DNA of 64,000 bases from Candidatus Woesebacteria bacterium GW2011_GWB1_33_38 (GCA_000990005.1 LBPF01000003.1:7479-71478), one strand, 5' to 3'. Shown: positions 26,120-47,982, counted from the stretch's first letter. Made by a program: numbers and translations. The notes: a model not told the origin generated them from the letters alone.

Positions 26120-26319
26120 TGGTTTTGTACCCTTCTCTCAATTTCATTTAATGTATCCATGTCCAAATTAGGGTTAATTGGAGCAATTATTTCATTTGAG
26201 ACATTTACAGGACTTTCTTTTGTAAAAACACGATAAATAGTAAATGATATCCAAAAAACAACAGTAATAGTTGTTAAAATTAACAAAATCATTAAACTAG
26301 GTAACTTTGCATTTTTCAT
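26116..26319 (-). CDS. small membrane protein in the pil operon
   Basis: 67 aa, one TM, coupled to pilO. Confidence 0.35.
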   Translation of the reverse strand: MKNAKLPSLMILLILTTITVVFWISFTIYRVFTKESPVNVSNEIIAPINPNLDMDTLNEIERRVQNQ

Positions 26320-26978
26320 ATTTCTGTTTTAACAAATGGCATTCTTCCCAAAACAGTTAGGATTAGAATTTTGCCATTTTCCGTTTTGGTGGAATTTATC
26401 ACTAACGAATCAACTTTTAAAGGTCTAACTAAATTTTCTATGTCAAAAAGAAAAAGAAGTAAGTTTTGATATGAACCAGACATCGATATTGAACAAGGGA
26501 GTTCTTCTGCACCCTGGGGCAATTTTTCAGTCGCATCTATCCTCTTTGTTTTCCCTGCCACCTTACCTATTAAGGTTATATCTGACATACTCAAGTTTAT
26601 TAGCTGAAGTGAATTTTTATTTGCTAAATTTTCCATTGTTGATATTAAGTCTTCAGCGTTGGCAAGGCTTGGGATAGCAGACTCAATCTTTTGAAGTCCT
26701 TCCTCTTTGTCTTGAATAATTTGGTTTGCTTTTTGCAGGTCAAGCAACTTCTGATTAATTTTGACGATTGTTTCTTCCTTTGTTTCAATTTCTTTATTGA
26801 GTTCAATAATTGTTAAAACTGTAGGTTTAACAGCAAAAATTGCGAAGACAATGATCGTAGATAATGATAAAATAAGTTCTAAATAGATTTTAATATTGGG
26901 TTTGGTGTAATAAATCTGTAAGATATTTAAGAAAAAATCTTTGTACCTTAAATAATCTTTTTTCCAATTATTTTTCAT
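26316..26978 (-). CDS. pilO: type IV pilus assembly protein PilO-like
   Basis: Short cytoplasmic segment, TM, coiled coil; immediately downstream of and overlapping pilN. Confidence 0.55.
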   Translation of the reverse strand: MKNNWKKDYLRYKDFFLNILQIYYTKPNIKIYLELILSLSTIIVFAIFAVKPTVLTIIELNKEIETKEETIVKINQKLLDLQKANQIIQDKEEGLQKIESAIPSLANAEDLISTMENLANKNSLQLINLSMSDITLIGKVAGKTKRIDATEKLPQGAEELPCSISMSGSYQNLLLFLFDIENLVRPLKVDSLVINSTKTENGKILILTVLGRMPFVKTEI

Positions 26979-27523
26979 TTCGGTGAAATCTTTCCTGAAA
27001 CAGTAAATACAATAGTATTCGGGTCATCCTGAGAAGTCGAGATTTGAGAAAGTGTAATTTCTGAAAGATTATTTTTTGCTTCCAAGTTGGCTATAACTTG
27101 AGCAATCGAACTTTCTGAAAAAGAAGTAGCTTTAATAGCAAATGATTTATCATTAAAAGTGGTTGATGTAAAAATAATATCTAGTGGAAGTGTTGTTGAA
27201 ATATCATTTATAATTTCGGTAAAAAGAGGTTCATTATAAAGAGATTTGGCGATACTTAACTTCTTTTGAATGTTTTTGAACTCTAGTTCAATATCTTCAT
27301 AGGCAAGTATCTGGGATTGTCCAATATCTAAATCCTCATTTAAATCAGAATTTCTGGCATCTAACCAAAAACGTGATAAAAAGGCTGACATAACCAAAAG
27401 CTCAGTGATAATGACCATAACTCTAAAAGAAGAAAGGGACCACTTAAGTATTCTGCCTAGGGTACTTGTCTCAAATTCATCCTGAGGTAAAAGGTTTATA
27501 AATTTATTTTTTACTTTGGGCAT
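26975..27523 (-). CDS. pilN: type IV pilus assembly protein PilN
   Basis: Conserved N-terminal INLLP motif (FINLLPQDEF), followed by a TM. Confidence 0.7.
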   Translation of the reverse strand: MPKVKNKFINLLPQDEFETSTLGRILKWSLSSFRVMVIITELLVMSAFLSRFWLDARNSDLNEDLDIGQSQILAYEDIELEFKNIQKKLSIAKSLYNEPLFTEIINDISTTLPLDIIFTSTTFNDKSFAIKATSFSESSIAQVIANLEAKNNLSEITLSQISTSQDDPNTIVFTVSGKISPK

Positions 27524-33607: not shown

Positions 33608-34621
33608 ATGTCAAATAATCAACCAAGAACAGAATTTAGCCAGGCTTTAAAGGCCATAGTCCAAGAAAGAGGACTTGATGCTAATACAATAATTGATGCT
33701 ATTAAACAGGCAATAATTGCAGCCTTTAGACGTGACCAAAAAGAAGTTGGTATTGAATATGGCGAAGAGGTTGCCTTTGATGCTGAAATAAATTCTCTTG
33801 ATGGTGGAGCCAAAGTAATAGTAGATGGTAAAGATGTTACACCTCCAGGGTTTGGAAGAATTGCAGCTCAAACTGCAAAACAAGTAATTCACCAAAAAAT
33901 TAGAGAAGCTGAAAGGGGAGTTATTATGGATGAGTTTAGTGGAAAAATTGGTAATTTGGTTTCAGGAATTGTCCTAAGATTTGACGGTCCAAACGTCAGG
34001 GTAGATATGGGTAGGACTGAAGGGTTTATGCCTCAGGAAGAAAGAATCCCAACAGAAAGATTATCTCAAGGACAAAGATTAACATTTTTACTTAAAGACA
34101 TTAGAGAAACGATTAAAGGAAAAGAATTAATTCTCTCAAGAGCTGATCCTGCCTTTGTAGTTAAGCTTTTTGCTCGTGAAGTTCCTGAGATTGGAGCAAA
34201 TTCAGTTCAAATTAAATTAATATCTCGTGAAGCTGGTGTTAGAACTAAAATTGCAGTTTACTCTGAAAGTTCAGGTGTTGATCCAGTTGGAAGCTGTGTT
34301 GGTCAAAAAGGTGTTAGGGTTCAAGCAGTTACCAATGAATTAGGAGGAGAAAGAGTTGATGTCATTTCATATAACGAAGATTTTGAAGAATTGATTAAAC
34401 TTGCACTTGCTCCTGCTTCTGATTTAGTAGTTAAGATTAATAAAAAAGAGTTAACTGCAGAAGTTACAGCTCCTGAAGACCAATTGTCTTTGGCAATTGG
34501 TAAAGATGGCCAAAATGTACGCTTAGCAAGTAAATTAGCAGGTTACAAAATTGAAATAATCGGCCTGCCTGCGCAGGCAGGAGCACCTGTTGTTGAAGAT
34601 ACCGTACAAGAAAAGTCATGA
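33608..34621 (+). CDS. nusA: transcription termination/antitermination factor NusA
   Basis: N-terminal domain, S1 and two KH domains (AIGKDGQNVRLASKLAGYKIEI). Confidence 0.85.
   Translation: MSNNQPRTEFSQALKAIVQERGLDANTIIDAIKQAIIAAFRRDQKEVGIEYGEEVAFDAEINSLDGGAKVIVDGKDVTPPGFGRIAAQTAKQVIHQKIREAERGVIMDEFSGKIGNLVSGIVLRFDGPNVRVDMGRTEGFMPQEERIPTERLSQGQRLTFLLKDIRETIKGKELILSRADPAFVVKLFAREVPEIGANSVQIKLISREAGVRTKIAVYSESSGVDPVGSCVGQKGVRVQAVTNELGGERVDVISYNEDFEELIKLALAPASDLVVKINKKELTAEVTAPEDQLSLAIGKDGQNVRLASKLAGYKIEIIGLPAQAGAPVVEDTVQEKS
34564..34581. repeat. 18-nt perfect palindrome CCTGCCTGC|GCAGGCAGG, in-frame in the nusA 3' end (encodes LPAQAG)
   Basis: Read directly. Confidence 0.9.
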
Positions 34622-34663
34622 GTATTTTAAATAAAAATTATTATGAGATTCAGCTAAATCGCT

Positions 34664-36052
34664 ATGAAAACAAAAAGACAACCCATTGTGACTGTTCTTG
34701 GGCACGTAGATCATGGTAAGACTTCACTTCTTGACGCTTTAAGAAATACTAATGTAACTGGTGGAGAAGCTGGTGGTATAACCCAATCAATTGGAGCTAG
34801 TGTAGTTAATGGTATTTGTTTTATTGATACTCCTGGTCATGCTCTTTTTTCTGGAATGAGATCAAGAGGCTCTAAACTTGCAGATATCGCACTCTTAGTT
34901 GTTGACGGCTCAGATGGAGTTAAACCTCAAACAAAAGAGGCAATTGCTCACATTAATACCGCAGGAATTCCTTTTATTGTGGTTATTACAAAGATTGATT
35001 TACCAGCAGCTTCAGTTGATGTTGCCCTTTCTGAACTTGAAAAAGAAGGAATCTGTTTTGAAGGTCATGGCGGTCAGACACCTTATATTGGTGTCTCAGC
35101 CAAGAAAAAAGAAAAGTTACAAGATCTTTTAGATTTGATTTTACTTTTGGCTGAAGTTAACAACTTTGAAGCAGATATTGAAGGAGAGTTAGAAGCTTTT
35201 GTCATTGAAACAAACAAAGATAAAGGTGGAAATATGGTGTCTTTGGTTTTACGAAACGGAAAATTAAAAATTGGTGATGAAATATTTAGCGCTCTGCCTG
35301 CGCAGGCAGGAAAAACCAAAGGAAAAGTAAAAGGACTTTTTGATTATCAAAATAAGCCTGTTAAAGAGGTTTTGCCTGGAGAACCTGCAAAGGTTTTAGG
35401 TTTTGAAAGTTTGCCTGGCGTTGGGGCTTTGGTAACAGATCATGAAATCAACGATCAACCCCACGTCGTTAAAGCTGTGCGGGGTGTCCTTGAAAAGGGT
35501 AAGATCCCTTTTTATTTAAAAGCTAACAGTGCTGGATCATTGGAGGCATTAACAACCTCAATTCCACAAGAATTTGTGATTGTTGAAAGTAGCGTTGGAG
35601 ATGTTACAGAGTCAGACGTCTTAAATGCTAAGGCAAATAATGCCTTGATTTTTGTGTTTGAAAGTAAAATTCCAGGGAGTGTTAAAAAGCTTGCTGAAAG
35701 TGAAAAACTAAAAATTGAGAGGTTTGATATTATCTATCAACTGTTAGAAAGATTGAGCGAAATAGTTAAAAGTGGTTTAAGAGAAATTCTAGGAAGAGCT
35801 GAAATTATTGCAAGTTTTCCATTTAATGATAAAAAAGTAGCTGGGTCTAAAGTCTTAATGGGTAGGATTGATAAAACTTCAGATCTACGGCTTATGAGAG
35901 GCGAAACAGAATTGGGTAAAATTAAAGTTTTGTCAATCAAAAAACAGAAAACAGAGGTTAATGGAGTTTCTCAGGGTGAAGAATTTGGAATATTTTTTTC
36001 ACCACAGCTTGATTTTACAGCAGGAGATGTTATTATTGCCGTTAATGGATAA
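34664..36052 (+). CDS. infB: translation initiation factor IF-2 (short form starting at the G domain)
   Basis: VTVLGHVDHGKTSLLDALR, DTPGH, TKID; follows nusA. Confidence 0.85.
   Translation: MKTKRQPIVTVLGHVDHGKTSLLDALRNTNVTGGEAGGITQSIGASVVNGICFIDTPGHALFSGMRSRGSKLADIALLVVDGSDGVKPQTKEAIAHINTAGIPFIVVITKIDLPAASVDVALSELEKEGICFEGHGGQTPYIGVSAKKKEKLQDLLDLILLLAEVNNFEADIEGELEAFVIETNKDKGGNMVSLVLRNGKLKIGDEIFSALPAQAGKTKGKVKGLFDYQNKPVKEVLPGEPAKVLGFESLPGVGALVTDHEINDQPHVVKAVRGVLEKGKIPFYLKANSAGSLEALTTSIPQEFVIVESSVGDVTESDVLNAKANNALIFVFESKIPGSVKKLAESEKLKIERFDIIYQLLERLSEIVKSGLREILGRAEIIASFPFNDKKVAGSKVLMGRIDKTSDLRLMRGETELGKIKVLSIKKQKTEVNGVSQGEEFGIFFSPQLDFTAGDVIIAVNG
35294..35309. repeat. 16-nt perfect palindrome CTGCCTGC|GCAGGCAG, in-frame in infB (encodes LPAQAG)
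   Basis: Read directly. Confidence 0.9.
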
Positions 36053-36953
36053 TTCGTTTAAAACTCTAATTGATTCTGCTCAAGAAGTCTTAATTTTACT
36101 TCCGCAAAAGCCAAATTTGGATCAAGTAGCATCTGGGTTGTCACTTTATTTATCTTTCTTGGGTTCTGGGAAAGATGTAACTATCTCATGTCCTGTTGCT
36201 ATGACAGCCGAATTCTCAAGACTTATTGGGGTAGACAAAATTACTGGAAATTTGGGAGATAAAAATTTAATAATTAAATTTGTCAATTACAACGCAACTG
36301 ATGTTGATAAAGTAAGTTATGATATTGAAAATAGTCAGTTTAAATTAACCATTAGTCCAAAAGTAGGTTTTAAATCTCCAACCAAAGATCAAATTGAAGT
36401 AAGTTATGCTGGAGGTAGCTCTGACTTTGTAGTTTTAGTAGGTGGTACAAGCGAATCTGATTTTCCGGTTTTACAAACTCTAGACTTTGCTAGTTCCAAA
36501 ATAATTCATTTAGGAACAAGACTTTTAGAGATTGAGAATAAAGATTTACAAGTACTTTCTTTTGCACAAAGCGCAAGTTCTATATCTGAAATTGTTGCAG
36601 GTTTAATTAAAGAGGGAGGTTTTGTATTAGATCCTGATATTGCCACAAACTTAATTGTAGGAATTGAAAGTGAAAGTAAAAATTTTCAATCTTCAGAGGT
36701 AACAGTTAATACTTTTGAAACATTTACAGAATTATTAAAACTTGGGGGTCTTAGATTCAAGAAGGTGCCAACCAGTACCTTCCCACAAGGATCAATACCA
36801 AACAAACCATACAACCAAGTAAATCAGTTACCCATTAATCCAGTAATTCAGGACAGACAAATGACCCCCGAAGAAGCAGAAGAAGAAATACAACAGGATA
36901 TCCCGCCTTCCTGGTCCGAACCCAAAATCTTCACAGGAACCAGTGTAAGTTAA
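36045..36953 (+). CDS. DHH/NrnA-like phosphoesterase family protein with degenerate motifs (uncertain)
   Basis: Position after infB where nrnA usually sits; no clear DHH motif. Start taken at ATG 36045 overlapping the infB stop. Confidence 0.35.
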   Translation: MDNSFKTLIDSAQEVLILLPQKPNLDQVASGLSLYLSFLGSGKDVTISCPVAMTAEFSRLIGVDKITGNLGDKNLIIKFVNYNATDVDKVSYDIENSQFKLTISPKVGFKSPTKDQIEVSYAGGSSDFVVLVGGTSESDFPVLQTLDFASSKIIHLGTRLLEIENKDLQVLSFAQSASSISEIVAGLIKEGGFVLDPDIATNLIVGIESESKNFQSSEVTVNTFETFTELLKLGGLRFKKVPTSTFPQGSIPNKPYNQVNQLPINPVIQDRQMTPEEAEEEIQQDIPPSWSEPKIFTGTSVS

Positions 36954-37338
36954 TTTAGAAATTCATTTACTGTTTGTCCTAGTACACACTTTCCCCAATC
37001 AATCTATTTGTTTTTATTGACTATCCAAATTCAGTTTCAAACACAAATCATCTTGAAGGCCTATTTGGCCAAAGAAAACCAGCTCTTGTCAGACACAGAG
37101 GATTATCAAGAACTAAAGTATCCAAGGCACTTCTTTGGACGTTTTACTTACAATCAAAAACCTAAAAACACCAACGCATTTTGTCTATTAACCCTGATTT
37201 TGCTGTAGGGAATGTGAAAAAAAGGTTCGAAAAAGTTGAACAAGAATCAATAAAAGATAAGAAATTTGGTAGAGATGGGTTAAGTACTTTAAACATACTT
37301 CATGGCTAAATTTTATCTATTGCACAGGAGACCACTTA

Positions 37339-38049
37339 GTGGTAATCTTCGGAGTTAATATGACAGATGTAAATTTTAAAAGCCCCAAAGCTGATATTTG
37401 GAGTGCTTATAAAGACTTGTTAGCTCAAGCAGGATCTGTGTCTACTGGTGAAAAAGTTGTAGAAAAGATAAATGATAATACCTTTCGGTTAGGTGAAATA
37501 TTAAATGATGAAGTTCAAAAAGTAATAGTTAAAATAAAAAATGCTACACAAACCTTAGCCGACATTAAAACTACTTCCGTTGCATTATCTGATTCAATCA
37601 AAAAGGAGGAAGAAGAAATTAGAAAAAGAAGGACAAGAGAAGAAGACGATTACCAATATGAGTTCGAAAAACGTAAGAAAAAACAGGAAGATGAGTTAAG
37701 TGCAAGACAAAATGAGATCAAAGAGATGGAAACTGAACTTTCAGAGCTTAGAAATTTGGCAAAAACTTTCGATACAAAGCTTGAAAAGGCCATAAAAGAG
37801 GCAGAGGGTACCAAAGAAAAAGAATTAAAAACCATTTTTGATTATGAGAAAGTTTTATCCAAACAAACTGCAGAGTCAACACAAAACCTACTTCTATCTA
37901 AAATTGAAAGCTCAAATAAAATGGTTGATGATCTTAAAGCAGAAAATACAAAGCTAAAAGAAGCAGTGACACAGGCTAATAGCCAATTAACAAGAATTGC
38001 AGAAAAAGCAGTTGAAAAAAGTCAGTCTTCAAAAAATGGAACAGATTAA
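37339..38049 (+). CDS. hypothetical coiled-coil protein
   Basis: K/E-rich heptad-like sequence. Confidence 0.35.
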   Translation: MVIFGVNMTDVNFKSPKADIWSAYKDLLAQAGSVSTGEKVVEKINDNTFRLGEILNDEVQKVIVKIKNATQTLADIKTTSVALSDSIKKEEEEIRKRRTREEDDYQYEFEKRKKKQEDELSARQNEIKEMETELSELRNLAKTFDTKLEKAIKEAEGTKEKELKTIFDYEKVLSKQTAESTQNLLLSKIESSNKMVDDLKAENTKLKEAVTQANSQLTRIAEKAVEKSQSSKNGTD

Positions 38050-38082
38050 CTGAGTCGAATTTAAACTAGATCTTATAGTTAT

Positions 38083-38115
38083 TGCAAGGTCAGACCTCGC
38101 AATTTTTATGGTTTT
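38083..38115 (+). terminator. intrinsic terminator (palindrome TTGCAAGGTCaGACCTcGCAA followed by a T tract)
   Basis: Near-perfect 10-bp stem followed by TTTTTATGGTTTTT. Confidence 0.5.
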
Positions 38116-38136
38116 TGAAAATGTTATAATACACTC

Positions 38137-38379
38137 ATGGCAAATATACCCTATTTTTTGTGGGATTATGATTTAACTGAAAAAGATGTAGTCAAAATTT
38201 TGCGTTCCAAAAATGCAGAAGAAAAATCTTGGATTATCACAAGAATTTTAGAAAGTGCTAGATATGAAGATATATGGAGATTTTTGAGTTTACAGGAAAT
38301 AAAGGCAATTTACCCAAGTCTTAAATTAAAAAAACCTATTAAAGATGCATGGGACTATGCACTTTCAATCTGGAATTAA
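38137..38379 (+). CDS. small protein upstream of AbiEii, candidate cognate antitoxin (uncertain)
   Basis: 80-aa ORF 6 nt upstream of the toxin gene. Confidence 0.25.
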   Translation: MANIPYFLWDYDLTEKDVVKILRSKNAEEKSWIITRILESARYEDIWRFLSLQEIKAIYPSLKLKKPIKDAWDYALSIWN

Positions 38380-38385
38380 TTAACT

Positions 38386-39036
38386 ATGACAGATTATAAA
38401 CTACAAGATGATTTTTTGGAGGAATTCTTTTCAGAGAACCTTACGTCCGATTTTTATTTAACAGGAGGAACTGCACTTTCTAGATTTTATTTAAATCACA
38501 GAATAAGTGATGATATTGATTTATTTACTCAAAACCAAAAGATTGATATGAGTACAGTAAATTTTTTGGTTTTAAAAATATTAAGCAATCTAAAACTGGA
38601 GATTGTAAAGCAAGTAAATACAGATACTTTTTTACAATATATTACTAAATCTAAAAGCGGTAATACGTTAAAAATAGATTTTGTAAAAGATATTCCAGTT
38701 CATTTTGGTGAATTTAAAATGGTGGATAAAGTTAGAATTGATAGTTTAGAAAATATTGGATCAAATAAAGTATTAACGATACTTGGTAGAAGTGATGCAA
38801 AGGATTTTATTGATTTATATTTTATACTACAAAAAACAAAACTTAAATTCGATTTTTTATATGAGTTGGCTACAAAAAAAGACTTAGGATTATCAGAATT
38901 TTACTTAGCTAATTCCATGCACCAAATTCAAAAAATATCGATATATCCAAAAATGTTAGTTAAATTTGACAAAACTAAATTACTAAAATTTTACTCTGAT
39001 TTAGCAAGAAAACTTCTGTTGAAAATTAAACCTTAG
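38386..39036 (+). CDS. AbiEii/AbiGii-family nucleotidyltransferase toxin (DUF1814)
   Basis: YLTGGTALSRFYLNHRISDDIDLF matches the AbiEii NTase motif. Confidence 0.65.
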   Translation: MTDYKLQDDFLEEFFSENLTSDFYLTGGTALSRFYLNHRISDDIDLFTQNQKIDMSTVNFLVLKILSNLKLEIVKQVNTDTFLQYITKSKSGNTLKIDFVKDIPVHFGEFKMVDKVRIDSLENIGSNKVLTILGRSDAKDFIDLYFILQKTKLKFDFLYELATKKDLGLSEFYLANSMHQIQKISIYPKMLVKFDKTKLLKFYSDLARKLLLKIKP

Positions 39037-39140
39037 ATTCGTTAATTAATTCCCCTTTGTAATTTTTAAGATCCACTGATATAATACACAACATTGATGG
39101 TAGCAAGGTTATTTACTTTGGCTATACATGACTAAACAAT

Positions 39141-39410
39141 ATGGCATTAAAAGTAGAAGAGAAAAAAGAATTAATTAAAAAGTTTGCAAGAGAAAAGGGT
39201 GATACGGGATCTCCAGAGATTCAGATTGCTCTTCTTTCAACAAAAATAGATAAACTTGCAGAGCATTTAAAGGAACACAAAAAAGACGTTCACAGTAGAA
39301 GAGGCCTTCTTTCAATGGTTGCAAAAAGAAGAAGACTTCTGTCATACTTACAAAAGAAAGACGAAACAAGATATAAGGCTTTAATAAAAGAATTAAAATT
39401 AAATAAATAA
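39141..39410 (+). CDS. rpsO: 30S ribosomal protein S15
   Basis: [38 protein letters not shown]. Confidence 0.9.
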
Positions 39411-39423
39411 AAGCTTCAAATTA

Positions 39424-41790
39424 ATGATTAAAAAGGTAGAAAAAACATTTGAATTAGGTGGTAAAAAAATTACCCTTACAGCAGGAATATTAGCAGAACA
39501 AGCTGATAGTGCTGTTATGGCAAGATTAGGTGATACTGTTGTTTTAGCAACTGTTGCCTCAGCTCCCTTGAAGATGGAAATGGATTATTTTCCACTTTCG
39601 GTTGAATATCAAGAAAAATTATATGCTGGTGGAAAAATAAAAGGTTCACGTTGGGTTAAAAGAGATGGCAGACCAACTGATGAAGAAATTTTGACTGCAA
39701 GATTAATTGATCGTTCCATTAGACCGCTTTTCCCCAAGCTTTACAAAAAAGAAGTCCAAATAATAGTTACAGTTTTATCAGTTGATGGAGAAAATTCTCC
39801 AAGTATTTTAGGCGCAATTGCAGCCTCAGCTGCAGTCCATGCTAGTTATTTACCCTGGAAAGGTCCAGTTGGAGTAGTCAATGTGGGAATGAAAGGATCT
39901 GATTTTATAATTAATCCAACTAATCAAGAATTAGAAAGTTCTGACTTAGACTTAGTTGTTTCTTCAACTAAAACGGCTGTATTAATGATTGAAACTGGGG
40001 CAAAAGAGGTAACCGAAGCTCAAATTGTAGATGGAGTCAAATTAGCTTTTGAAGAAGCTCAAAAAATAAACTCAGCTATTGAAGATTTTATTAAGGAATT
40101 AGACATTAAAAGAGATGTTTATACTGAAGATAGACCGCCTGTGGCGCTAGAAAAACAAGTTCATAAGTTAGTGGATGAGAAAATTCCCGGTCTTGTTAAG
40201 AATATGGCCACACATGAAGGTGCATCTGGTGATTTTATGGAGTTGGTAAATGCAGTAGCCGAAAATTTTGAAAAGATTGAAGAGAAAAAGTTCATCGCAG
40301 AAATTATTGACCACATCAAAAAGGACTATATTAGAGAACAGATTCTTAAAAAAGGTATAAGACCTGACGGTAGAAAATTAACAGAAGTAAGACCACTTAG
40401 CGCCGAAATCTCATTTTTACCCAGAACACATGGATCGGGGTTATTTAAAAGAGGTCAAACTCAAGTTCTTTCAATTGCAACACTCGGAGCTTCCAAGATG
40501 GGACAACTTTTGGAAACTGCAGAAGGTGAAGAAGAAAAGCGTTATATGCATCACTATTCCATGCCTCCTTTTACAACAGGTGAAGTAGGAAGAGTTGGAA
40601 ATCCAGGCAGACGTGAAATTGGTCATGGAGCTTTAGCTGAAAAAGCTTTGATCCCAGTACTTCCCACACAAGAAGAATTCCCATACGCAATTAGAGTAGT
40701 TTCAGAAGTAATGAGTTCAAACGGATCAACATCAATGGCCTCAGTTTGTGGATCATCCCTTGCCTTAATGGATGCAGGAGTTCCAATAAAGGCTCCAGTT
40801 TCAGGTATTGCCATGGGGTTAATTATTGACCTGCCTGCCGGCAGGCAGGTGGCAGACGTTGCAATTCTAACAGACATAATGGGACTTGAAGACTTTAATG
40901 GTGATATGGATTTTAAAGTTGCAGGAACTGAAAAAGGAATTACTGCAATTCAACTTGATGTCAAAACTTTAAGTCTAACCCCTGAAATTTTAGAAAAAGC
41001 ACTGGAACAATCAAAAGTAGGTAGGGCAGAAATATTAAAAGTGATAACAGATACAATAAAAGAACCAAAAAAGACGGTTTCTGCTTTTGCTCCAAAGATA
41101 AAACTTGTAACAATTCCAGTTGAAAAGATTGGAGAACTTATAGGTCCTGGTGGAAAAGTAATCAAGAAGTTAATGGCTGATACTGAGACCGAAGTCGAAG
41201 TAGAGGACGATGGAAAAGTTTCGATATCAGGTATGGATGATGAGAAAATTACAAAAGCAATCAGTTGGATTGAAGGATTGGTTAAAGAAGTACAAGCAGG
41301 GGAAATATATGACGGTGAGGTTGTCAGACTTATGCCTTTTGGAGCGTTTATGAATATACTTCCAGGCAAAGATGGAATGGTTCATGTTTCAGATATGGGA
41401 CAAGTTGGGTTTGTTGCTGATGCTTCTGATGTTGTCAAAATTGGAGACAAAATAAAGGTAAGAGTTAAAAAGATAGATGACATGGGAAGAGTTAATCTTT
41501 CTATGAATATGGATCCCGCAGCAGATGAAAAGGTGGAAAGTTCAAAAAGAGATAGGAATGGTGGAGATAGAAGTGGGGGATTTCCCGCCCGAGGCGGGTC
41601 CTCCTTTGGAGGATCAAGAGGACCAAGAAGAGATTTTTCAGGAGGAGGAAGAGGAGGTTTCTCAAGAGGACCAAGAACAGGTGGATTCCGAGACAATAGA
41701 GGTAATGCCGATAGGCCACTTGAGGGAAGATCATCTGGTCCACATTTTCCAACTTCAAGATACTTCCAAACTGGCCAAAGTTCAGATTGA
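39424..41790 (+). CDS. pnp: polynucleotide phosphorylase with C-terminal RGG/G-rich tail
   Basis: Two RNase PH domains, KH and S1 domains, GDMDFKVAG. Confidence 0.95.
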   Translation: MIKKVEKTFELGGKKITLTAGILAEQADSAVMARLGDTVVLATVASAPLKMEMDYFPLSVEYQEKLYAGGKIKGSRWVKRDGRPTDEEILTARLIDRSIRPLFPKLYKKEVQIIVTVLSVDGENSPSILGAIAASAAVHASYLPWKGPVGVVNVGMKGSDFIINPTNQELESSDLDLVVSSTKTAVLMIETGAKEVTEAQIVDGVKLAFEEAQKINSAIEDFIKELDIKRDVYTEDRPPVALEKQVHKLVDEKIPGLVKNMATHEGASGDFMELVNAVAENFEKIEEKKFIAEIIDHIKKDYIREQILKKGIRPDGRKLTEVRPLSAEISFLPRTHGSGLFKRGQTQVLSIATLGASKMGQLLETAEGEEEKRYMHHYSMPPFTTGEVGRVGNPGRREIGHGALAEKALIPVLPTQEEFPYAIRVVSEVMSSNGSTSMASVCGSSLALMDAGVPIKAPVSGIAMGLIIDLPAGRQVADVAILTDIMGLEDFNGDMDFKVAGTEKGITAIQLDVKTLSLTPEILEKALEQSKVGRAEILKVITDTIKEPKKTVSAFAPKIKLVTIPVEKIGELIGPGGKVIKKLMADTETEVEVEDDGKVSISGMDDEKITKAISWIEGLVKEVQAGEIYDGEVVRLMPFGAFMNILPGKDGMVHVSDMGQVGFVADASDVVKIGDKIKVRVKKIDDMGRVNLSMNMDPAADEKVESSKRDRNGGDRSGGFPARGGSSFGGSRGPRRDFSGGGRGGFSRGPRTGGFRDNRGNADRPLEGRSSGPHFPTSRYFQTGQSSD
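40829..40850. repeat. 22-nt perfect palindrome ACCTGCCTGCC|GGCAGGCAGGT, in-frame in pnp (encodes DLPAGRQ)
   Basis: Read directly; relative to E. coli and B. subtilis PNPase sequences recalled from memory, this position carries about 6 extra residues. Confidence 0.9.
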
Positions 41791-41826
41791 TAAGACTTTT
41801 TCATGTTCGCAATCAGCTAATATGTC

Positions 41827-41867
41827 TGCGCGATGTTTTGCGCGATCATTGCGTGATATGCTATAAT
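41827..41867. promoter_or_regulatory. three direct repeats TGCG[C/T]GAT (41827, 41839, 41850) overlapping a promoter (TATAAT 41862-41867) 6 nt upstream of the fic ATG
   Basis: Read directly; spacing 12 and 11 nt. Confidence 0.4.
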
Positions 41868-41873
41868 TACATC

Positions 41874-42908
41874 ATGTTTAAGCCAAAATACCAAATTACA
41901 AATAAAATCCTATCAGATTTAACTAAAATCGTTGAGATTAAATCGTTAGTTGAAAAAAGCAACATCACACCTGCGAGAGAAATTTTTCTTAAGAAAATTG
42001 CGACTATTGGTATGACACACTCTTCAACCAGCATTGAGGGAAATACTCTTGATGAATACCAAGTTAGAATGCTAGCTGATGGTGAAAAAGTTGTGGCTGA
42101 CAATAAACAGATTTTAGAAGTTGAAAATTATTTAAAATCTTTGGAATTAATTGATAAAATTCATGAATCTAAAAAGTCTTTTGGTGAAAAAGAAATACTA
42201 GATATACATAAATCAGTAACTACAGGACTAATCGACAAAAATAAAGTTGGAGTTTTTAGGTGTGGCCCAGTTTACATCATGAACATATCATTGTTTGGAC
42301 ACCGAGAATTGGTATATACACCACCAAAATTTAACAAAGTCGAATCATTAATAAAAGACTTGCTAGAATGGATGAACGAAGAAGATGGTATTCATCCAAT
42401 TATAAAAGCAGGTATCTTTCACTATCAATATGTCTCAATCCACCCCTTTACTGATGGTAATGGTAGGTCAACAAGGCTTTTAACCTTACTCTATTTATAT
42501 CAAAAAGGATATGTTTTTAAAAAGTCGATGATTTTAGATAATTTTTACAATAATGACAGAAAAAGGTATTATCAAAATTTACAAACAGGAGTAGATTTTA
42601 AATCGAGAGAAAATGCAGATTTAACAAATTGGCTTGAGTATTTTACAGAAGGATTTTTATTTGAAGCTCAAAAGGTAAAGGATTTGATATTATCATTTTC
42701 AAAAAAATCAAAAGCATCAGTTGTTTTAAATAAAGACGAATTAAAGATAGTTGACTTTGTAGTAAATTTAGGAAAGATTACGAGCGATGAGGTTGTAAAT
42801 ATTTTAAGTGTCCCAAAAAGAACAGCACAAGACAAACTTAAAAAGTTAGTGGATTTAAAAGTTTTAAAGAAAAAAGGCTCTGGCCCTAACACTTATTACA
42901 TAACTTAA
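41874..42908 (+). CDS. fic: Fic/Doc-family protein with C-terminal winged helix
   Basis: HPFTDGNGRSTR Fic motif; ATG at 41874. Confidence 0.8.
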   Translation: MFKPKYQITNKILSDLTKIVEIKSLVEKSNITPAREIFLKKIATIGMTHSSTSIEGNTLDEYQVRMLADGEKVVADNKQILEVENYLKSLELIDKIHESKKSFGEKEILDIHKSVTTGLIDKNKVGVFRCGPVYIMNISLFGHRELVYTPPKFNKVESLIKDLLEWMNEEDGIHPIIKAGIFHYQYVSIHPFTDGNGRSTRLLTLLYLYQKGYVFKKSMILDNFYNNDRKRYYQNLQTGVDFKSRENADLTNWLEYFTEGFLFEAQKVKDLILSFSKKSKASVVLNKDELKIVDFVVNLGKITSDEVVNILSVPKRTAQDKLKKLVDLKVLKKKGSGPNTYYIT

Positions 42909-43513
42909 TGAAAAAAAGGATAATTTTATTTGACATTGACAGAACGATTTTTGATACAGACAAGCTATTGAGGCTTCAAAGCGAAAATATCTCAAAAGTT
43001 GTAAATGCAGAGAGGTTCAAAGAGTTTTGGGATAGCACTCTTTCTGGAGAAAAGCATATTACATCTGAAGAACGACTAAATTTAATTTGTTCAAAATTCA
43101 ATATTAAAAACTCTAAATTATTATCGAATATTTTTTTTGGAAAAGAATATAAATATATTTATAGCGACTCTGTTTATCTTGAAACGCGTGTAGTTTTTGA
43201 TAAATTAAAAAGTAAATATCGATTGGGAATATATTCAGAAGGAACCGCAAAGTTTCAAAATCATAAATTTAGGTCATTAGGTTTAGATAGATATTTTGAC
43301 AATGATTTAATTTTTATAGTTGATGCAAAAGATACAAAAGAAGTTTTAAATAAAATTCCAAAAGATGCAATTATAGTTGATGATAAAGAAACCATTTGTG
43401 GATTTTTAACCAAAAACGACATCAGAGCTATTTGGTTAAATAGAAAAGATAACAGAAAAAGTGATAAATTTGAAACTATATACTCACTTTTTGATCTTCT
43501 AGACGTGTTATAA
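42908..43513 (+). CDS. HAD-superfamily hydrolase-like protein
   Basis: N-terminal FDIDRT (DxDxT) motif. Confidence 0.5.
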   Translation: MKKRIILFDIDRTIFDTDKLLRLQSENISKVVNAERFKEFWDSTLSGEKHITSEERLNLICSKFNIKNSKLLSNIFFGKEYKYIYSDSVYLETRVVFDKLKSKYRLGIYSEGTAKFQNHKFRSLGLDRYFDNDLIFIVDAKDTKEVLNKIPKDAIIVDDKETICGFLTKNDIRAIWLNRKDNRKSDKFETIYSLFDLLDVL

Positions 43514-43521
43514 TTTTAATC

Positions 43522-44571
43522 ATGTCAGATACTGCCTTTGATGAGATTAATTTACTTGGGGAAAAAGTCAAAACTTCTACTGTCCCCGATGAACTAAAAG
43601 CTTCTGTACAAATTAGACTTGAACAATTAAAAAAATTAACAAATTCCCCCACCTTTTTACCTGAATATGACAGGATGAATAAATACATTGATTGGATTAC
43701 TATTTTGCCATGGAACACAAAATCTCAAGATAATCTGGATTTAGTTAATGCTAAAAAAATTCTTGACCAACACCATTTTGGATTGGAAGAAATAAAGGAA
43801 AGAGTTTTGGAGTATCTAGCTGTTATGAAACTAAAACAGGAAAAAGGGGAGAGTCAAGATATTTATAGAGCTCCAATCCTTTGTTTTGTTGGATTGGTTG
43901 GAACTGGAAAAACAACTATCGCTTTTTCAATTGCAGAAGCCTTGGGCCGAAAAATTGCCCGTATCCCCTTTGGAGGTATGGGAGATCCATTAGACTTAAG
44001 GGGGCAGAGTAAAATGCATGCTGAAGCAGAGCCTGGGAAAATTATTAAAGCACTAAGGGACACTGGAACTAGAAATTCTGTAATACTACTCGATGAAATT
44101 GATAGGGTAACAGATCAAGGAAGAGCGTCAATTATGGGTGTTTTGGTTGAACTTTTAGATCCTGGACAAAACCATGCTTTTACTGATCATTATATTGATT
44201 ATCCTGTAAATCTTTCAGAATGTATTTTTATAGCAACTGCCAACAATACAACAAATATCTCAACAGCTGTTATGGACAGAATTGAGCCAATTATGATGCC
44301 TAGCTATACTGATCAAGAAAAAATAACAATAGGCCAGAAATATGTATTTCCAAGAGTAATGAAAGCTGCTGGACTTCCTGCAGAGTCTTTAAAAATTGAT
44401 GATGATATTTGGGCCAATTTAGTTAGACCTTTAGGATATGATGCTGGAATTCGTACGATGGAAAGGACAATTGGAGGAGTTGTTAGAAAAGTTGCAAGAT
44501 TAATGGTTGAAGGAAAGGGCACAGAGTTTCATGTTACTTCACAAAACGTCAAAGAGTTCCTGCCACAGTAG
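43522..44571 (+). CDS. Lon-like AAA+ ATPase module with no N domain and no protease domain
   Basis: YIDWITILPWN, GLVGTGKTT, LLDEID, LDPGQNHAFTDHY, MDRIE; ends before the Ser-Lys protease domain. Confidence 0.7.
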   Translation: MSDTAFDEINLLGEKVKTSTVPDELKASVQIRLEQLKKLTNSPTFLPEYDRMNKYIDWITILPWNTKSQDNLDLVNAKKILDQHHFGLEEIKERVLEYLAVMKLKQEKGESQDIYRAPILCFVGLVGTGKTTIAFSIAEALGRKIARIPFGGMGDPLDLRGQSKMHAEAEPGKIIKALRDTGTRNSVILLDEIDRVTDQGRASIMGVLVELLDPGQNHAFTDHYIDYPVNLSECIFIATANNTTNISTAVMDRIEPIMMPSYTDQEKITIGQKYVFPRVMKAAGLPAESLKIDDDIWANLVRPLGYDAGIRTMERTIGGVVRKVARLMVEGKGTEFHVTSQNVKEFLPQ

Positions 44572-44599
44572 TTTAGGAAGTTTTTGATATACTGACCTT

Positions 44600-45025
44600 G
44601 TGAAAATTGTAATAATTGGGGATTCACATAACAACGTTTCCAACTTAAAATATGTTATGGGATTTGCAAAGAAAATTAGGGCAGGTGCGATAATTCATAC
44701 AGGAGATTGGAATAATTTTGACAATATAAAAATAGTATCAGATTATGCCATTCCATTGTATTCGTGTCTTGGTAATGCTGATATTGATCCAAATTTTAAA
44801 TTTAAAGAGGAATTAGAAATTGAACTAGATAGTTTAAAAATTGGAATTTGTCATTCAATTAAAAATTGTAAATTGAAAATTAAAAATTTAGACGTAGTCT
44901 TCTGTGGGCATACACACAAACAAGGGCAAGAAAAAAATGTTATAAATCCCGGGGCATTAGAAAACGGCATTAACTTTGCAATTTTTGATACAAAGACCAA
45001 AGGTGTAGAATTTATCCAAGAATAA
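44600..45025 (+). CDS. YfcE/MJ0936-like metallophosphoesterase
   Basis: IIGDSHN...HTGDW...CGHTHK motifs. Confidence 0.65.
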   Translation: MKIVIIGDSHNNVSNLKYVMGFAKKIRAGAIIHTGDWNNFDNIKIVSDYAIPLYSCLGNADIDPNFKFKEELEIELDSLKIGICHSIKNCKLKIKNLDVVFCGHTHKQGQEKNVINPGALENGINFAIFDTKTKGVEFIQE

Positions 45026-45033
45026 ATTAGGGC

Positions 45034-45069
45034 TTGACATATATACATATTATGTATAGTATATGTATA
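45034..45069. promoter_or_regulatory. promoter (TTGACA 45034-45039, TAGTAT 45057-45062) with palindrome ATACATA-t-TATGTAT and TATGTATA direct repeats; RHH-PIN operator candidate
   Basis: Read directly; the ATG at 45063 or 45069 would lie at the 5' end of the transcript. Confidence 0.4.
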
Positions 45070-45311
45070 TGTTAACTCAAACTTTTAATATATCATTACC
45101 TAATGATTTAGTAAAAAAAGCCGATTTGGTTGCAAAAAGAGAATATAGGAATAGAAGCGAACTTATTAAAGAAGCACTTCGGACATATTTATTTAACAAA
45201 CTCTCGTGGGAGGAACTATTTGTGTATGGAAAAAAGATGGGTAAAAAAATAGGAATAAGTAGCGAGGAAGATATCTTTGAAAAATTAAATAATTATCGAA
45301 ATGGAAGCTAA
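45063..45311 (+). CDS. ribbon-helix-helix (CopG/ParD-like) antitoxin
   Basis: 82 aa; NISLPNDLVKKADLVAKREYRNRSELIKEALR. Confidence 0.5.
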   Translation: MYMLTQTFNISLPNDLVKKADLVAKREYRNRSELIKEALRTYLFNKLSWEELFVYGKKMGKKIGISSEEDIFEKLNNYRNGS

Positions 45312-45720
45312 TCTTCCTAGAATTACAATAGATACAAATGTCATTGTTTCTGCCTTAGTTTTTGGTGGGAATTCAAAAGCAATAATAGAAAAATTAATTA
45401 AAAGTGAATTTATAGCTTACACCTCACCTCAACTTATTTCAGAATTGCTGGAAATTTTACTCCAAAAGTTTAATTTCTCAGATGAGATGACTAAAAAAGT
45501 TGAGGTGCAAATAAATTCACTTTTTCATATTATCTATCCTGCTGTAGAAGTAAACATAGCTAGAGATAGAGATGATAACAGGGTATTAGAAGTAGCCGAA
45601 GAAAGCGAAAGTTCGATTATAGTTACCGGAGATAAAGATTTATTGTCACTGAAAGTTTACAAAAACATCATTATAATGAATCCAAAGACATTTCTTACCT
45701 TTTTAAATTTAAATGACTAA
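45301..45720 (+). CDS. PIN-family toxin-antitoxin toxin component
   Basis: ITIDTNVIVSALVFGG...VTGDKDLL; overlaps the antitoxin gene. Confidence 0.65.
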   Translation: MEANLPRITIDTNVIVSALVFGGNSKAIIEKLIKSEFIAYTSPQLISELLEILLQKFNFSDEMTKKVEVQINSLFHIIYPAVEVNIARDRDDNRVLEVAEESESSIIVTGDKDLLSLKVYKNIIIMNPKTFLTFLNLND

Positions 45721-46294
45721 ATATGAGGCCTTGCATAAACTAAAAGATGATATGGAAAAGGATGATTCACTTCCGCTTAAAAAAGGTGCTGGAAAACTCG
45801 TATTTGGATCTGGGAATACTGAAGCAAAAATACTTTTATGTGGTGAGGGTCCAGGAAGACAGGAAGATTTGCAGGGTTTACCTTTTGTTGGACAGGCAGG
45901 AAAACTATTAGATAAATTATTATTGCTGGCCGGACTTGAAAGAAAAGAGGTTTTTGTTACAAACGTTGTTCATCACAGACCTCCAGAAAACAGAGATCCA
46001 CTACCAGAAGAAATAACTAGCTATGGTAAGTATCTTGATCAGATAATAAATATCTTAAATCCTAAAGTAATAATTACATTGGGTCGTTTTTCTATGGCAA
46101 AGTTTTTACCCAATGTATTTATTAGTCAAGTTCATGGTAAAAAACATGACATAATCTGGAAAGATAAAAAAATTATTGTTTTTCCCATGTATCACCCCGC
46201 AGCATCTTTAAGAAATGGGAATATTTTAAGACAAGAACAAAAAGACTTCTTACAATTAAAAGATACTTTGTATATAATGGGGTTAGTTAAATGA
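45713..46294 (+). CDS. udg: uracil-DNA glycosylase, family 4
   Basis: GEGPGRQEDLQGLPFVGQAGKLLDKLL...VFVTNVVHHRPPENRDP. Confidence 0.8.
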   Translation: MTKYEALHKLKDDMEKDDSLPLKKGAGKLVFGSGNTEAKILLCGEGPGRQEDLQGLPFVGQAGKLLDKLLLLAGLERKEVFVTNVVHHRPPENRDPLPEEITSYGKYLDQIINILNPKVIITLGRFSMAKFLPNVFISQVHGKKHDIIWKDKKIIVFPMYHPAASLRNGNILRQEQKDFLQLKDTLYIMGLVK

Positions 46295-47982
46295 AACCTT
46301 CTTTAAAATTCATAGCTCTTTCAGGTACCACTGATGTTACAGAGAATTTATATGTTTACGAATACCTGCCTGACGGCAGGCAGGTGAAGGACATGGTTAT
46401 TTTGGATTGTGGTGTAGGTTTTCCTGACTTGGAAATGCCAGGTGTAGAATTAGTCCTTCCTGATTTTTCATATATAGTCAAAAATAAAAGTAAACTTCGA
46501 GGTATTGTCGTCTCTCAAGGACATGATGATCATGTCGGAGCTTTGCCATTTTTACTTCGAGATCTAGCTGCACAAGGTGGTCAAGTTCCTCCTATTTGGT
46601 GCCCACCAATTGTCACAGAATTTTTAAAAGTTAAGTTTAAGGATTATCAAATAGTTAATTACAAGCTAAATACATTTAATCCTGACAGAGATACATTTGA
46701 AGTTGGGGCATTTAAGTTTTCTCCTTTTAGGGTTGCTCATTCTGTACCTGATACTGTAGGTTATGCAATAGATACACCAGCTGGTAGAACATTTCATGTA
46801 GCAGAACATAAAATGGACCAAAATTCTACTGATGGAATGAATTTTGATACTAATAAATGCAAAAGTTTAGCAGCTGAAAAACCTGTACTTTGTCTGATGT
46901 CTGATTGTTTAGGTTCAAATGATCCAGGTATGGCTCCGTCTGGGGTTGAAATAGAAGAAAACATGTTTAATATTGCTAAAAATGCATCTCAAGCTTTGTA
47001 TATGACCGCGATTTCTTCATCTATTGGTAGATTTCAGCAAATGATGAATGTGGCCAAGAGATTAAATCGAAAAGTAGTTTTAGTTGGAAGGTCAGTCCAA
47101 AGCAAAATTGAGATTGCTTATAATTTAAAATACATTAAATACTTACCAGGTCAAATCGTTGACCTAAGAGAAACTCAGAAATATAATTCTAGTAAGTTAA
47201 TGTACATTATTGCTGGTTGTTATGGCCAACCTGGAAGTTCTGTTTATAGATTGGCTTTAAGTGAACACGAGAGAGTACACATAAATGAAAACGATATGTT
47301 TATTTTTTCTGCAGATCCTGGACCTGCTTATTCCAAAGAATCAATTGACTTTATAGTAGATAAACTAACAGACATTGGTGTTGATGTTCATTATTATGAT
47401 TTGCATGAAGGTCTTCATGTCTCAGGCCATGGAACTCAGGGAGATATTACTGAGCTTTTCAAAATTGTAAATCCTAAATATTTTGTTCCAACAGGTGGAA
47501 CAATTAGATATATGAAGGCATATGAAAAATTGGCAGTTAAATTTGGAGCGAAAGCTGAAAATGTACTTCGTCTTAAACCTGGAGAAAGCGTTATATTTAA
47601 CAATGAAGAAGTTAAAAAAGGAGAGACAATTGCAGTAAAAGAGGTTTTTGTGCATGGTTTAGGGGTTGGAGATATTGGTAAGGTTGTTTTAGAAGATAGG
47701 ACTTTACTTGGGGATGAAGGGATAGTTGTTGTTGCGATTAAAATTAATAAAGATAAAAAGGTAGTAGCTAGACCTGAACTTACCAGTCGTGGTTTTGTTT
47801 TTCAACAGAAATTTGGAGGAATTTTAGATGGTGGAGAACAGGAACTATTTAATCTTTTGCAGAAAAAAGATTTAAAAGATATTTCCACGATGAAAAACTT
47901 CTCAATTCAAGTCTTAGAAAAATATTTCTTTGATAAAACCCGTCGCCAGCCAATGATCTTGCCTGTGGTGGTTGAAGTTTAA
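46291..47982 (+). CDS. rnj: ribonuclease J
   Basis: Metallo-beta-lactamase HxHxDH (SQGHDDHVGA), beta-CASP domain, C-terminal domain. Confidence 0.9.
   Translation: MKPSLKFIALSGTTDVTENLYVYEYLPDGRQVKDMVILDCGVGFPDLEMPGVELVLPDFSYIVKNKSKLRGIVVSQGHDDHVGALPFLLRDLAAQGGQVPPIWCPPIVTEFLKVKFKDYQIVNYKLNTFNPDRDTFEVGAFKFSPFRVAHSVPDTVGYAIDTPAGRTFHVAEHKMDQNSTDGMNFDTNKCKSLAAEKPVLCLMSDCLGSNDPGMAPSGVEIEENMFNIAKNASQALYMTAISSSIGRFQQMMNVAKRLNRKVVLVGRSVQSKIEIAYNLKYIKYLPGQIVDLRETQKYNSSKLMYIIAGCYGQPGSSVYRLALSEHERVHINENDMFIFSADPGPAYSKESIDFIVDKLTDIGVDVHYYDLHEGLHVSGHGTQGDITELFKIVNPKYFVPTGGTIRYMKAYEKLAVKFGAKAENVLRLKPGESVIFNNEEVKKGETIAVKEVFVHGLGVGDIGKVVLEDRTLLGDEGIVVVAIKINKDKKVVARPELTSRGFVFQQKFGGILDGGEQELFNLLQKKDLKDISTMKNFSIQVLEKYFFDKTRRQPMILPVVVEV
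46364..46385. repeat. palindrome ACCTGCCTG-acgg-CAGGCAGGT (9-bp arms), in-frame in rnj (encodes YLPDGRQV)
   Basis: Read directly; relative to B. subtilis RnjA recalled from memory, about 6 extra residues. Confidence 0.9.

Follow-up and report, generated by a model that had tools for sequence, protein, structure and literature searches.

Short GC-rich palindromes were found within the genes nusA, infB, pnp and rnj on a stretch of 64,000 nucleotides from Candidatus Woesebacteria bacterium GW2011_GWB1_33_38 (GCA_000990005.1 LBPF01000003.1:7479-71478), which is called the window in the following. We conclude that these palindromes probably represent a family of non-autonomous DNA elements, palindromic and ultra-short, which consist of scarcely more than one GC-rich hairpin. 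An earlier note on this DNA had listed four palindromes in the four genes, all of which were found where it had placed them, and had proposed a small palindromic element inserted in-frame into tolerant surface loops. The proposal is supported by indels among orthologues, by the recurrence of the palindromes elsewhere and by their frame bias. L-numbers denote the contigs or loci compared, P-numbers the protein homologues compared. The host genes and the copies within them are as follows:

33608-34621, + strand: host gene nusA, an open reading frame (ORF) with a NusA cluster name, whose syntenic orthologue on L031 matches Pfam NusA_N/KH_NusA
34564-34581: nusA copy, type A, CCTGCCTGCGCAGGCAGG, a perfect 18-nt palindrome in the C-terminal linker after KH2
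34664-36052, + strand: host gene infB, an ORF for a short IF-2 of the Candidate Phyla Radiation (CPR) type, matched by solved IF-2 structures
35293-35310: infB copy, type A, tCTGCCTGCGCAGGCAGg, in a loop of the IF-2 domain II beta-barrel
39424-41790, + strand: host gene pnp (PNPase), an ORF with homologue and structure matches
40829-40850: pnp copy, type B, ACCTGCCTGCCGGCAGGCAGGT, a perfect 22-nt palindrome within the second RNase PH domain, in a loop
46291-47982, + strand: host gene rnj (RNase J), an ORF with homologue and structure matches
46364-46385: rnj site 1 copy, type B, ACCTGCCTGaCGgCAGGCAGGT, at the tip of a beta-hairpin, residues L26-Q31
46564-46581, + strand: rnj site 2, an old decayed copy, CTA GCT GCA CAA GGT GGT = LAAQGG

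All five copies are genic, and the four intact ones begin with CTG CCT, i.e. Leu-Pro, the common frame that had been noticed before. The nusA copy is read as GG[C CTG CCT GCG CAG GCA GG]A (G-LPAQA-G), the infB copy as CTG CCT GCG CAG GCA GGA (LPAQAG), the pnp copy as CTG CCT GCC GGC AGG CAG (LPAGRQ) and rnj site 1 as CTG CCT GAC GGC AGG CAG (LPDGRQ). The description of all four palindromes as perfect was correct for nusA (18 nt), infB (16 nt) and pnp (22 nt) but not for rnj site 1, whose perfect 9-bp arms enclose the non-self-complementary centre ACGG, one substitution in the loop-forming centre. In infB the perfect core CTGCCTGCGCAGGCAG comprises 16 nt (35294-35309), while the outer pair T/G leaves one mismatch in the 18-nt unit. 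The units of 18-23 nt form stems of 7-9 bp and a 4-nt loop with hairpin energies of -10 to -18 kcal/mol for RNA (-17 kcal/mol for the pnp copy) and -5.5 to -11 kcal/mol for DNA. At rnj site 2 (FLLRD-LAAQGG-QV) the palindrome is lost; it is evidently a decayed CTG CCT GCG CAG GCA GGN. Because of the two inserts, the rnj product of 563 amino acids is 12 residues longer than those of typical relatives (about 551).

The palindromes had been judged not to be due to chance, and this assumption was corroborated by dinucleotide-preserving shuffles of the window (33.5% GC), which gave 0 matches to CCTGCCTG-N(0-12)-CAGGCAGG compared to 3 observed. The 7-mer CTGCCTG was present 14 times in the window, against an expectation of 3.1. 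A scan of the window for GC-rich hairpins with a stem of at least 7 disclosed nothing beyond the four. These near-perfect copies reside within 11.8 kb (P ~0.02 for clustering within 64 kb), which suggests a recent local burst.

Judged by the alignments, the window copies are lineage-specific inserts of six codons each. Relatives with 82-88% identity and shared synteny have no insert in infB, pnp or rnj, and L037 has none in nusA. On L031, the syntenic contig of a relative (82-86% amino acid identity), the order nusA-infB-rpsO-pnp-...-rnj is retained with zero palindromes, and its infB, pnp and rnj genes are shorter by exactly six codons at the insert sites. In infB the same gap was seen in L037, L087, L071 and others as well as in the IF-2 of T. 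thermophilus (3j4j). For the other two proteins, RNase J and PNPase, 120 listed homologues each were compared. All seven closest PNPases (P0122-P0128, 81-88% identical) lack the six residues, as do most of the 120 listed; empty-site DNA exists in L031, L036 and L037, and the solved PNPases 5xex and 5yjj show a 6-residue gap. None of the closest relatives (P0002-P0010, L036, L031, L037 and L245) has an insert at rnj site 1, and the inserted residues are missing from most of the 120 listed RNase J homologues, the closest of which are up to 89% identical. In solved RNase J (3zq4 and 6k6s), six residues are missing at both rnj sites. Thus, the about six additional residues that had been noted for pnp and rnj were recovered by comparison with solved structures, and for IF-2 too. 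The nusA locus of L037 reads ATA ATT/GGA GCA CCT (IIG-AP), whereas L031 possesses a decayed copy, GGC TTG CCA GTA GAG GCA GGA (LPVEAG). These alleles fit an exact 18-mer inserted into GG^A, and the contrast between a perfect copy in the window and one with 5 changes in L031 is compatible with chance at a synonymous divergence of ~40%.

The inserts were mapped on an AlphaFold2 model of the window RNase J (mean pLDDT 83). LPDGRQ is placed between strands 20-26 and 34-38 and would form the tip of a beta-hairpin (pLDDT of the block ~90), while site 2 would be a helix end with the following loop. The gaps in the solved structures coincide with these positions, in agreement with the surface loops proposed.

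The best pair of filled and empty alleles was provided by L247 (P0093) and L246 (P0375, GCA_030699485.1), which are 96% identical at the nucleotide level over rnj. The empty allele is GAA TAT CAA GAT, the filled one GAA TAC TTG CCT GCG CAG GCA GGT GAG GAT. The latter can be written as TA[C(C>T)TGCCTGCGCAGGCAGG]T, so that the 18-nt palindrome itself is the indel, splitting codon positions 2/3. The same split fits nusA (GG^A), L069 (GG^A) and rnj of L079 (CG^G), and it accounts for the E-to-D change in front of inserts (GA^A becoming GAC...GGA). No target-site duplication was detected in this 96%-identical pair or in the flank statistics, which were based on 86 non-redundant low-GC copies outside the window (172 ends). 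In these copies, flank bias was confined to the adjacent base (G 42%, A 30%), pointing to a weak preference for a purine^pyrimidine flank. A target duplication or palindromic target was considered and rejected, since the complementarity of the flanks was no higher than base frequencies predict.

Sequence comparison further shows the window copies to be members of a dispersed family following the plan (CCTG)2-centre-(CAGG)2, with three subfamilies:

Type A: CCTGCCTG-CG-CAGGCAGG, 18 nt, read as LPAQAG
Type B: CCTGCCTG-CCGG-CAGGCAGG, 20 nt, often 22 nt via A...T, net gain 18 nt, read as LPAGRQ
Type C: ACCTGCCTGCCGGCAAGGCAGGT, 21-23 nt with a one-base asymmetry, read as LPAGKAG

The 21-nt form of type C is read as CTG CCT GCC GGC AAG GCA GGN. 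Its extra A was found in two genes of L240, in L205 in the opposite orientation and in pnp of L069, where the distal arm has diverged (GGCTGG); further-diverged type C copies are present in rnj of L032 (LPSGKAG) and L071. Since this arbitrary asymmetry is common to several loci, the copies descend from master sequences and did not originate in place. Near-perfect copies vary in the loop-forming centre (ACGG, TCGG, TG, CA).

Among the homologues, RNase J contains YEY-LPAQAG in P0078 and P0093 and LLKD-LPAGRQ in P0010 and P0041, while PNPase contains EKD-LPAGRQ-DF in P0182 and IIED-LPAQAG-EK in P0203. The rnj gene of P0093 even harbors three copies, the others being FLLRN-LPAQAG and EFKN-LPAQAG. 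Site 2 of rnj is occupied elsewhere by perfect type A (L149, P0093), by type B (P0010, P0041) or by the decayed LSAQAG (P0075); LADGQNIS (L035), LPSGKAGQ and PPSARQA are other decayed peptides. We also inspected 80 pnp-centred loci of different Microgenomates species (~1.5 Mb), in which the density is ~6-9 copies per 1.5 Mb. Exact or near-exact copies reside here in another loop of IF-2 (L054), in an AlaRS-like gene and PNPase (L069), in DnaJ, RNase J and a third gene (L079), in RNase J (L109) and in the nusA-infB spacer (L061, intergenic). A scan of metagenome contigs with the exact 18-mer yielded at least 120 matches. Among the matches listed, most contigs have 30-50% GC and many come from groundwater; the hosts listed include UvrA, UvrC, TopA, DnaE, PolA, IleRS, RecF, YchF, MurD, HtrA, MreC and a pilin. 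Structural-RNA genes are affected as well: L139 carries two copies in a tRNA-Leu-like gene and L159 one in a helix loop of an RNase P RNA-like sequence, whose Rfam RF00010 match (E=4.6e-5, 23 bits vs gathering 100) serves as illustration only. In L213 and L141, copies are arranged in tandem or side by side. Altogether, the hosts are Woesebacteria/Microgenomates genomes and unclassified low- to mid-GC metagenome contigs. A tie to essential genes, as in the earlier note, or to RNA-metabolism genes was not retained, because the family hits many unrelated genes, spacers and RNA genes and the hosts in the window are thus incidental.

Some candidates were discarded in the course of these searches. 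A raw palindrome scan of viral contigs gave matches mostly in contigs of 52-67% GC, in any frame and chance-like, and three in low-GC contigs; in the viral L016/L017, two copies flank a 640-nt segment, which had raised the idea of a REPtron-like unit that was then dropped. A longer element with CCTGCCTG and CAGGCAGG as terminal inverted repeats was rejected, as there were just chance pairs and independent neighbouring copies. Half-sites in the window at 2615, 21985, 29549, 40604, 45893 and 55769 resemble ordinary coding sequence (NPGRRE in PNPase, VGQAGK in UDG); the orthologue comparison, which covered 55769 alone, revealed no indel. The half-site that had been reported at 55768-55777 (CAGGCAGGT) is hence native coding sequence, ATT GCA GGC AGG TAC = IAGRY, and orthologues have KKIAGKYP or KKIVGKYP of equal length in place of KKIAGRYP.

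The copies apparently turn over. Those common to L246 and L247 diverged independently (CTA vs TTG; GCG GGT vs GCA GGC). As far as these alleles tell, they are not homogenised, and decay is AT-biased and proceeds by point mutation; gene conversion keeping copies perfect was rejected for the same divergence. L245/P0364 (88% amino acid identity) contains rnj site 2 as LASQGG, further diverged, and lacks the perfect site 1 copy. As it shares the decayed site 2 without the perfect site 1, perfect copies are young and decayed copies old. In a neighbour-joining tree, a clade of ~91% identity comprises type A (P0078, P0093), type C (P0081) and empty (P0375, P0097) states of rnj site 1, so that one codon must have seen three or more gains or losses.

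The reading frame was studied in copies on low- and mid-GC contigs (local GC <0.55), a copy being regarded as genic when inside an ORF of at least 120 amino acids. This applied to 79 of 100 non-redundant copies, of which 59 are read as LPAQAG, 11 as CLRRQ and 9 as PACAGR, the remaining 21 lying outside such ORFs. This strong bias is in line with the earlier remark that the frame avoids Cys and Arg-rich alternatives. On GC-rich contigs the three frames are near-equal (18/13/11), as for chance matches. Flank preference was rejected as the source of the Leu-Pro frame, since this preference, applied to the coding sequences of the window, predicts only 37/33/29%, and selection on the peptide is therefore needed. 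We infer that the bias is made by selection against Cys/Arg-containing readings together with intolerant positions, and that the insertion flux is much larger than the number of surviving copies.

According to these data, the elements behave as follows. The unit is added or removed as a block, which for type A is exactly the 18-nt palindrome without target duplication. Copies descend from masters and land in intergenic DNA as well as in genes for proteins and structural RNAs. Once inserted, a copy is not maintained, and AT-biased point mutation converts it into a normal-looking loop of 6-7 residues. In genes, survivors would be those of frame-neutral length (18 nt, or 21 nt net) at tolerant loop tips, mostly in the phase Leu-Pro-Ala-Gln-Ala-Gly and not Pro-Ala-Cys-Ala-Gly-Arg or Cys-Leu-Arg-Arg-Gln; purifying selection would sculpt this pattern from the larger insertion flux. 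Mobilisation most likely would occur via a hairpin or cruciform and a nuclease or transposase provided in trans. Both a single-strand 'peel-and-paste' reaction as in IS200/IS605 and the repetitive extragenic palindromes (REPs) with their REP-associated tyrosine transposases (RAYTs), and a blunt duplex cut-and-paste would be precise and free of duplications. No recurrent neighbour gene besides the host genes was found near copies, as expected for a non-autonomous element. The sole candidate trans-acting nuclease seen in the window is the following:

1724-1981, - strand: stand-alone GIY-YIG nuclease gene, 85 amino acids, Pfam PF01541 (E=5e-14)

Homologues with 70-79% identity are spread across CPR groups. 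In L139 (11406-11675) and L159 (9288-9543, - strand) homologous ORFs lie ~20-110 nt from palindromes, inside the tRNA-Leu-like gene and the RNase P RNA-like sequence, respectively, and direct repeats of ~40 and ~17 nt flank them in L139 and L159. By analogy, this arrangement resembles an endonuclease cassette that is mobile among genes for structural RNAs. A family copy was present within 20 kb at three of six independent GIY-YIG loci, compared to ~7 of 81 pnp-centred control loci; two further GIY-YIG loci have one copy of the gene and no palindrome, and other loci are likewise single-copy and fixed in their populations, often without a nearby palindrome. Only tentatively, and with considerable doubt, do we entertain the idea that the element constitutes a new class of mobile DNA and the smallest known transposable unit, a bare perfect 18-nt palindrome (with 20-23-nt variants) that would enter and leave precisely via a hairpin or cruciform, free of target duplications, in several uncultivated phyla. 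The enzyme would in this case be one that had not been connected with transposition before, possibly the CPR-widespread GIY-YIG nuclease, or else general repair machinery acting on excised hairpin oligonucleotides. If true, such an element would steadily supply conserved proteins with 6-7-residue loops and structural RNAs with helix extensions.

A number of observations weigh against a mobile element. The codon 3' of young inserts departs from the empty allele above background: in the 96% pair it is CAA in the empty and GAG in the filled allele, and in both type B copies of the window GGA has changed to GTG, which completes the 22-nt palindrome with the native NAC. A plain 18-mer pasting model leaves these changes unexplained. 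In addition, the type B palindrome has 20-22 nt, yet the net gain is 18 nt. The polymorphic pair is compatible with gain or precise loss alike, and movement itself is deduced from such alleles. No transposase or other dedicated enzyme tied to the element was found, nor any transposase in the 64-kb window. In the 2.96 Mb of DNA fetched for comparison, phmmer searches with IS200 and IS608 TnpA queries gave a single Y1 transposase ORF, on the palindrome-free contig L039, this strong match validating the queries. The link of the GIY-YIG gene to the element is weak. The identical 18-mer occurs on contigs of very different GC, which is unusual for lineage-bound MITEs (miniature transposable elements with inverted repeats) and could reflect a conserved host function. 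Finally, the copy counts were made on individual contigs and loci.

A conserved function is the basis of the explanation that the palindrome is a cis-element, such as an uptake signal that biased natural transformation would spread, a parS/matS-like site for chromosome organisation or an mRNA hairpin that would modulate the decay of the nusA-infB, pnp and rnj transcripts. The exact 18-mer is kept across many contigs of differing composition, stems are conserved and loops variable, the RNA hairpins are stable, all four clustered copies lie in RNA-handling genes, and DprA, a ComM-like ATPase and PilN/PilO, encoded in the window, represent a competence-type kit. However, the closest genomes (L031, L036, L037) are empty or decayed at the window positions and old copies are left to decay, for which reasons a recognition site, also considered in the earlier note, found no support as the cause of the copies. 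The density in relatives is far under that of uptake sequences, and the hosts are indiscriminate, comprising any housekeeping gene, intergenic DNA and RNA genes. Moreover, point mutation is unable to build an 18-nt GC-rich palindrome at 33% GC, and insertion is needed anyway. We consider a cis-element improbable. Even less can be said for palindromes arising in place by template switching on quasi-palindromes or by CCTG/CAGG slippage or inverted duplication, which we regard as very improbable. The arms are indeed tandem tetranucleotides, (CCTG)2/(CAGG)2, an additional CCTG-like unit or an abutting CAGG is seen in some copies, type B reaches 22 nt through changes of flanking codons, and the empty infB allele of L031 already contains GCA GGA. 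But the empty alleles TAT/CAA, TAT/GGG, GAT/GGA and ATT/GGA are devoid of an arm precursor, which largely refutes this origin, and neither the identical 18-mer at dozens of unrelated sites nor the asymmetry that type C copies share across loci agrees with it.

The strong Leu-Pro bias, the location of inserts at loop tips and the decayed copies, which hold their length and partly their residues, would also suit selection at the protein level, where LPAQAG/LPAGRQ would be a useful peptide module (a flexible linker or recognition motif) and the palindrome incidental. This is scarcely credible, as young copies all use the same GC-rich codons in a genome of 33% GC, copies exist in non-coding DNA, RNA genes and the other two frames, and the peptide is not conserved after decay of the DNA. 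An artefact of assembly or library construction, or a chimera, comes to mind because palindromes are classic artefact junctions and the data are metagenome assemblies. It can be practically dismissed: five independent assemblies of the same population from three sources (NCBI, JGI, ENA) agree in the sequence of the pnp and rnj palindromes, the same protein is carried by at least 18 contigs, the frame is always preserved, and other genomes contain versions that are decayed or polymorphic. Thus, we retain the ultra-short mobile palindrome as the probable explanation.

If this is true, no shorter repeat element would have been shown to act as a block insertion in bacterial genes. With 18 nt corresponding to six codons, length alone gives frame neutrality. 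The family would explain concretely by which kind of mutation many lineage-specific 6-7-residue loops in highly conserved CPR proteins came about, all stages from the perfect palindrome via the decaying copy to the ordinary loop being visible. With an exact indel free of duplication and a codon that was hit repeatedly, the mechanism is open to experiment, and the subfamilies may serve as markers of recent genome dynamics in unculturable organisms. As types A, B and C were gained independently at the same site, the inserts are homoplastic and call for caution by annotators and phylogeneticists.

Some further features were recorded. The competence and recombination genes of the window, located at 9579-11120, 12492-13310, 26316-27523, 2012-2872 and 12149-12511, encode a ComM-like Mg-chelatase ATPase, DprA, PilN/PilO, RmuC and a YraN/UPF0102 nuclease-like protein; the kit could be relevant to the inter-strain spread of insert-bearing alleles. 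The IS200/IS605-type Y1 ORF on the Woesebacteria contig L039 (3758-4192, + strand) lies near unusually GC-rich palindromes within the first 4 kb; it is unrelated to the CCTGCCTG family. Between the HAD hydrolase and UDG genes of L032 (8478-9359) and L033 (4847-5728) lies an ORF that faintly matches Pfam LAGLIDADG_3; it belongs to the relative with the type C rnj insert and is missing from the window synteny. A second, different GC hairpin (CCCGCCCGAGGCGGG, 41590-41604) resides in the Gly/Arg-rich C-terminal tail of PNPase in the window (FPARGG). At the same position the population variant P0367 (813 amino acids) reads FPAQAG and then continues in another frame to a longer C-terminus; relative to L031, part of the tail looks inserted.

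Two other GC hairpins, both recurrent in position, were noticed in relatives but have no counterpart in the window. AGGTGGG-N(1-4)-CCCACCT occurs ~1 kb upstream of nusA (L043, L047, L053, L087, L090, L091, L095, L097, L101 and L102) and GTCCCGC-AACG-GCGGGAC directly upstream of pnp (L058:9948, L064:9906 and L056:5692). They may be leader or terminator RNA, e.g. for pnp autoregulation. In the window, 15235-15336 (- strand) matches Rfam RF03531 (n00280, 'sRNA included into helicase gene') with 66.1 bits vs a gathering score of 65.2; being inside the UvrD-like helicase ORF 15061-16515, it is most likely conserved coding sequence. Of a class I Met-tRNA synthetase domain, the ORF 607-1047 (- strand) covers no more than the 146 N-terminal residues; close to the start of the window, this gene seems to be split or truncated.

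Among known systems, Rickettsia palindromic elements (RPEs) are in-frame palindromic repeats without a known transposase and are regarded as selfish DNA (PMC10969869). Like them, the family enters unrelated housekeeping ORFs in-frame and at sites where the protein structure tolerates it. However, RPEs have ~100-150 bp and encode ~30-50 residues, whereas the units studied here are 5-8x shorter (18-23 nt, 6-7 residues), and RPE-1 to RPE-10 are families specific to Rickettsia, while the hosts here are CPR/Woesebacteria and other uncultivated bacteria. According to Di Nocera et al. (PMC3733652), one end of an RPE carries a CGTC tag, and some GTAG/CGTC-tagged REPs lie inside ORFs, many of them replication or repair genes (PMC3733652). 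Many hosts here are likewise of the UvrA/UvrC/PolA/DnaE/RecF type. With REPs (20-40 bp) the family shares a repeated single GC-rich stem-loop (stems of 5-13 bp and loops of 2-20 nt in REPs), the multi-copy and strain-patchy occurrence and the subfamilies. Unlike the young copies of the family, which are perfect or near-perfect and mostly intragenic, REPs are imperfect palindromes, mostly extragenic and GTAG/CGTC-tagged. None of the 172 ends was abutted by GTAG, CTAC or CGTC, and GACG abutted two; within 8 nt of these ends GTAG was counted four times, CTAC once, CGTC twice and GACG twice. GTAG REPs flank RAYT genes; the phmmer search of the 2.96 Mb gave no Y1 transposase on palindrome-bearing contigs.

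IS608/ISDra2-type elements perform precise, hairpin-dependent insertion and excision without target duplication. The indel TA/T vs TA[18-mer]T is comparably precise and duplication-free, as in IS200/IS605 derivatives (palindrome-associated transposable elements, PATEs). Those elements, however, possess two distinct imperfect subterminal hairpins and a 4-5-nt target just 5', while the family has one perfect hairpin, a weak R^Y preference and no conserved flank tetranucleotide. MITEs contain terminal inverted repeats around a segment of ~50-500 bp and generate a target duplication, neither of which applies here. GC clusters of fungal mitochondria, usually 30-60 nt long and mostly intergenic or intronic in AT-rich genomes, are likewise scattered short GC-rich palindromes that look mobile and occasionally lie in-frame in coding sequence, but they are organellar and have different sequences. 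DNA uptake sequences (DUS), uptake signal sequences (USS) and the cyanobacterial highly iterated palindrome HIP1 are motifs of 8-12 nt at ~1 per kb that arise by substitution. They share with the family the over-representation, the location in genes, preferred frames and tolerant protein positions; their substitution origin and high density differ from the block insertion, low density and unconserved positions observed here. The literature searched holds no mention of the 18-mer, the 20-mer, LPAQAG or LPAGRQ and no report of such CPR inserts. The family thus resembles REPs and RPEs yet fails their defining features, and it apparently represents a previously undescribed group of palindromic inserts.

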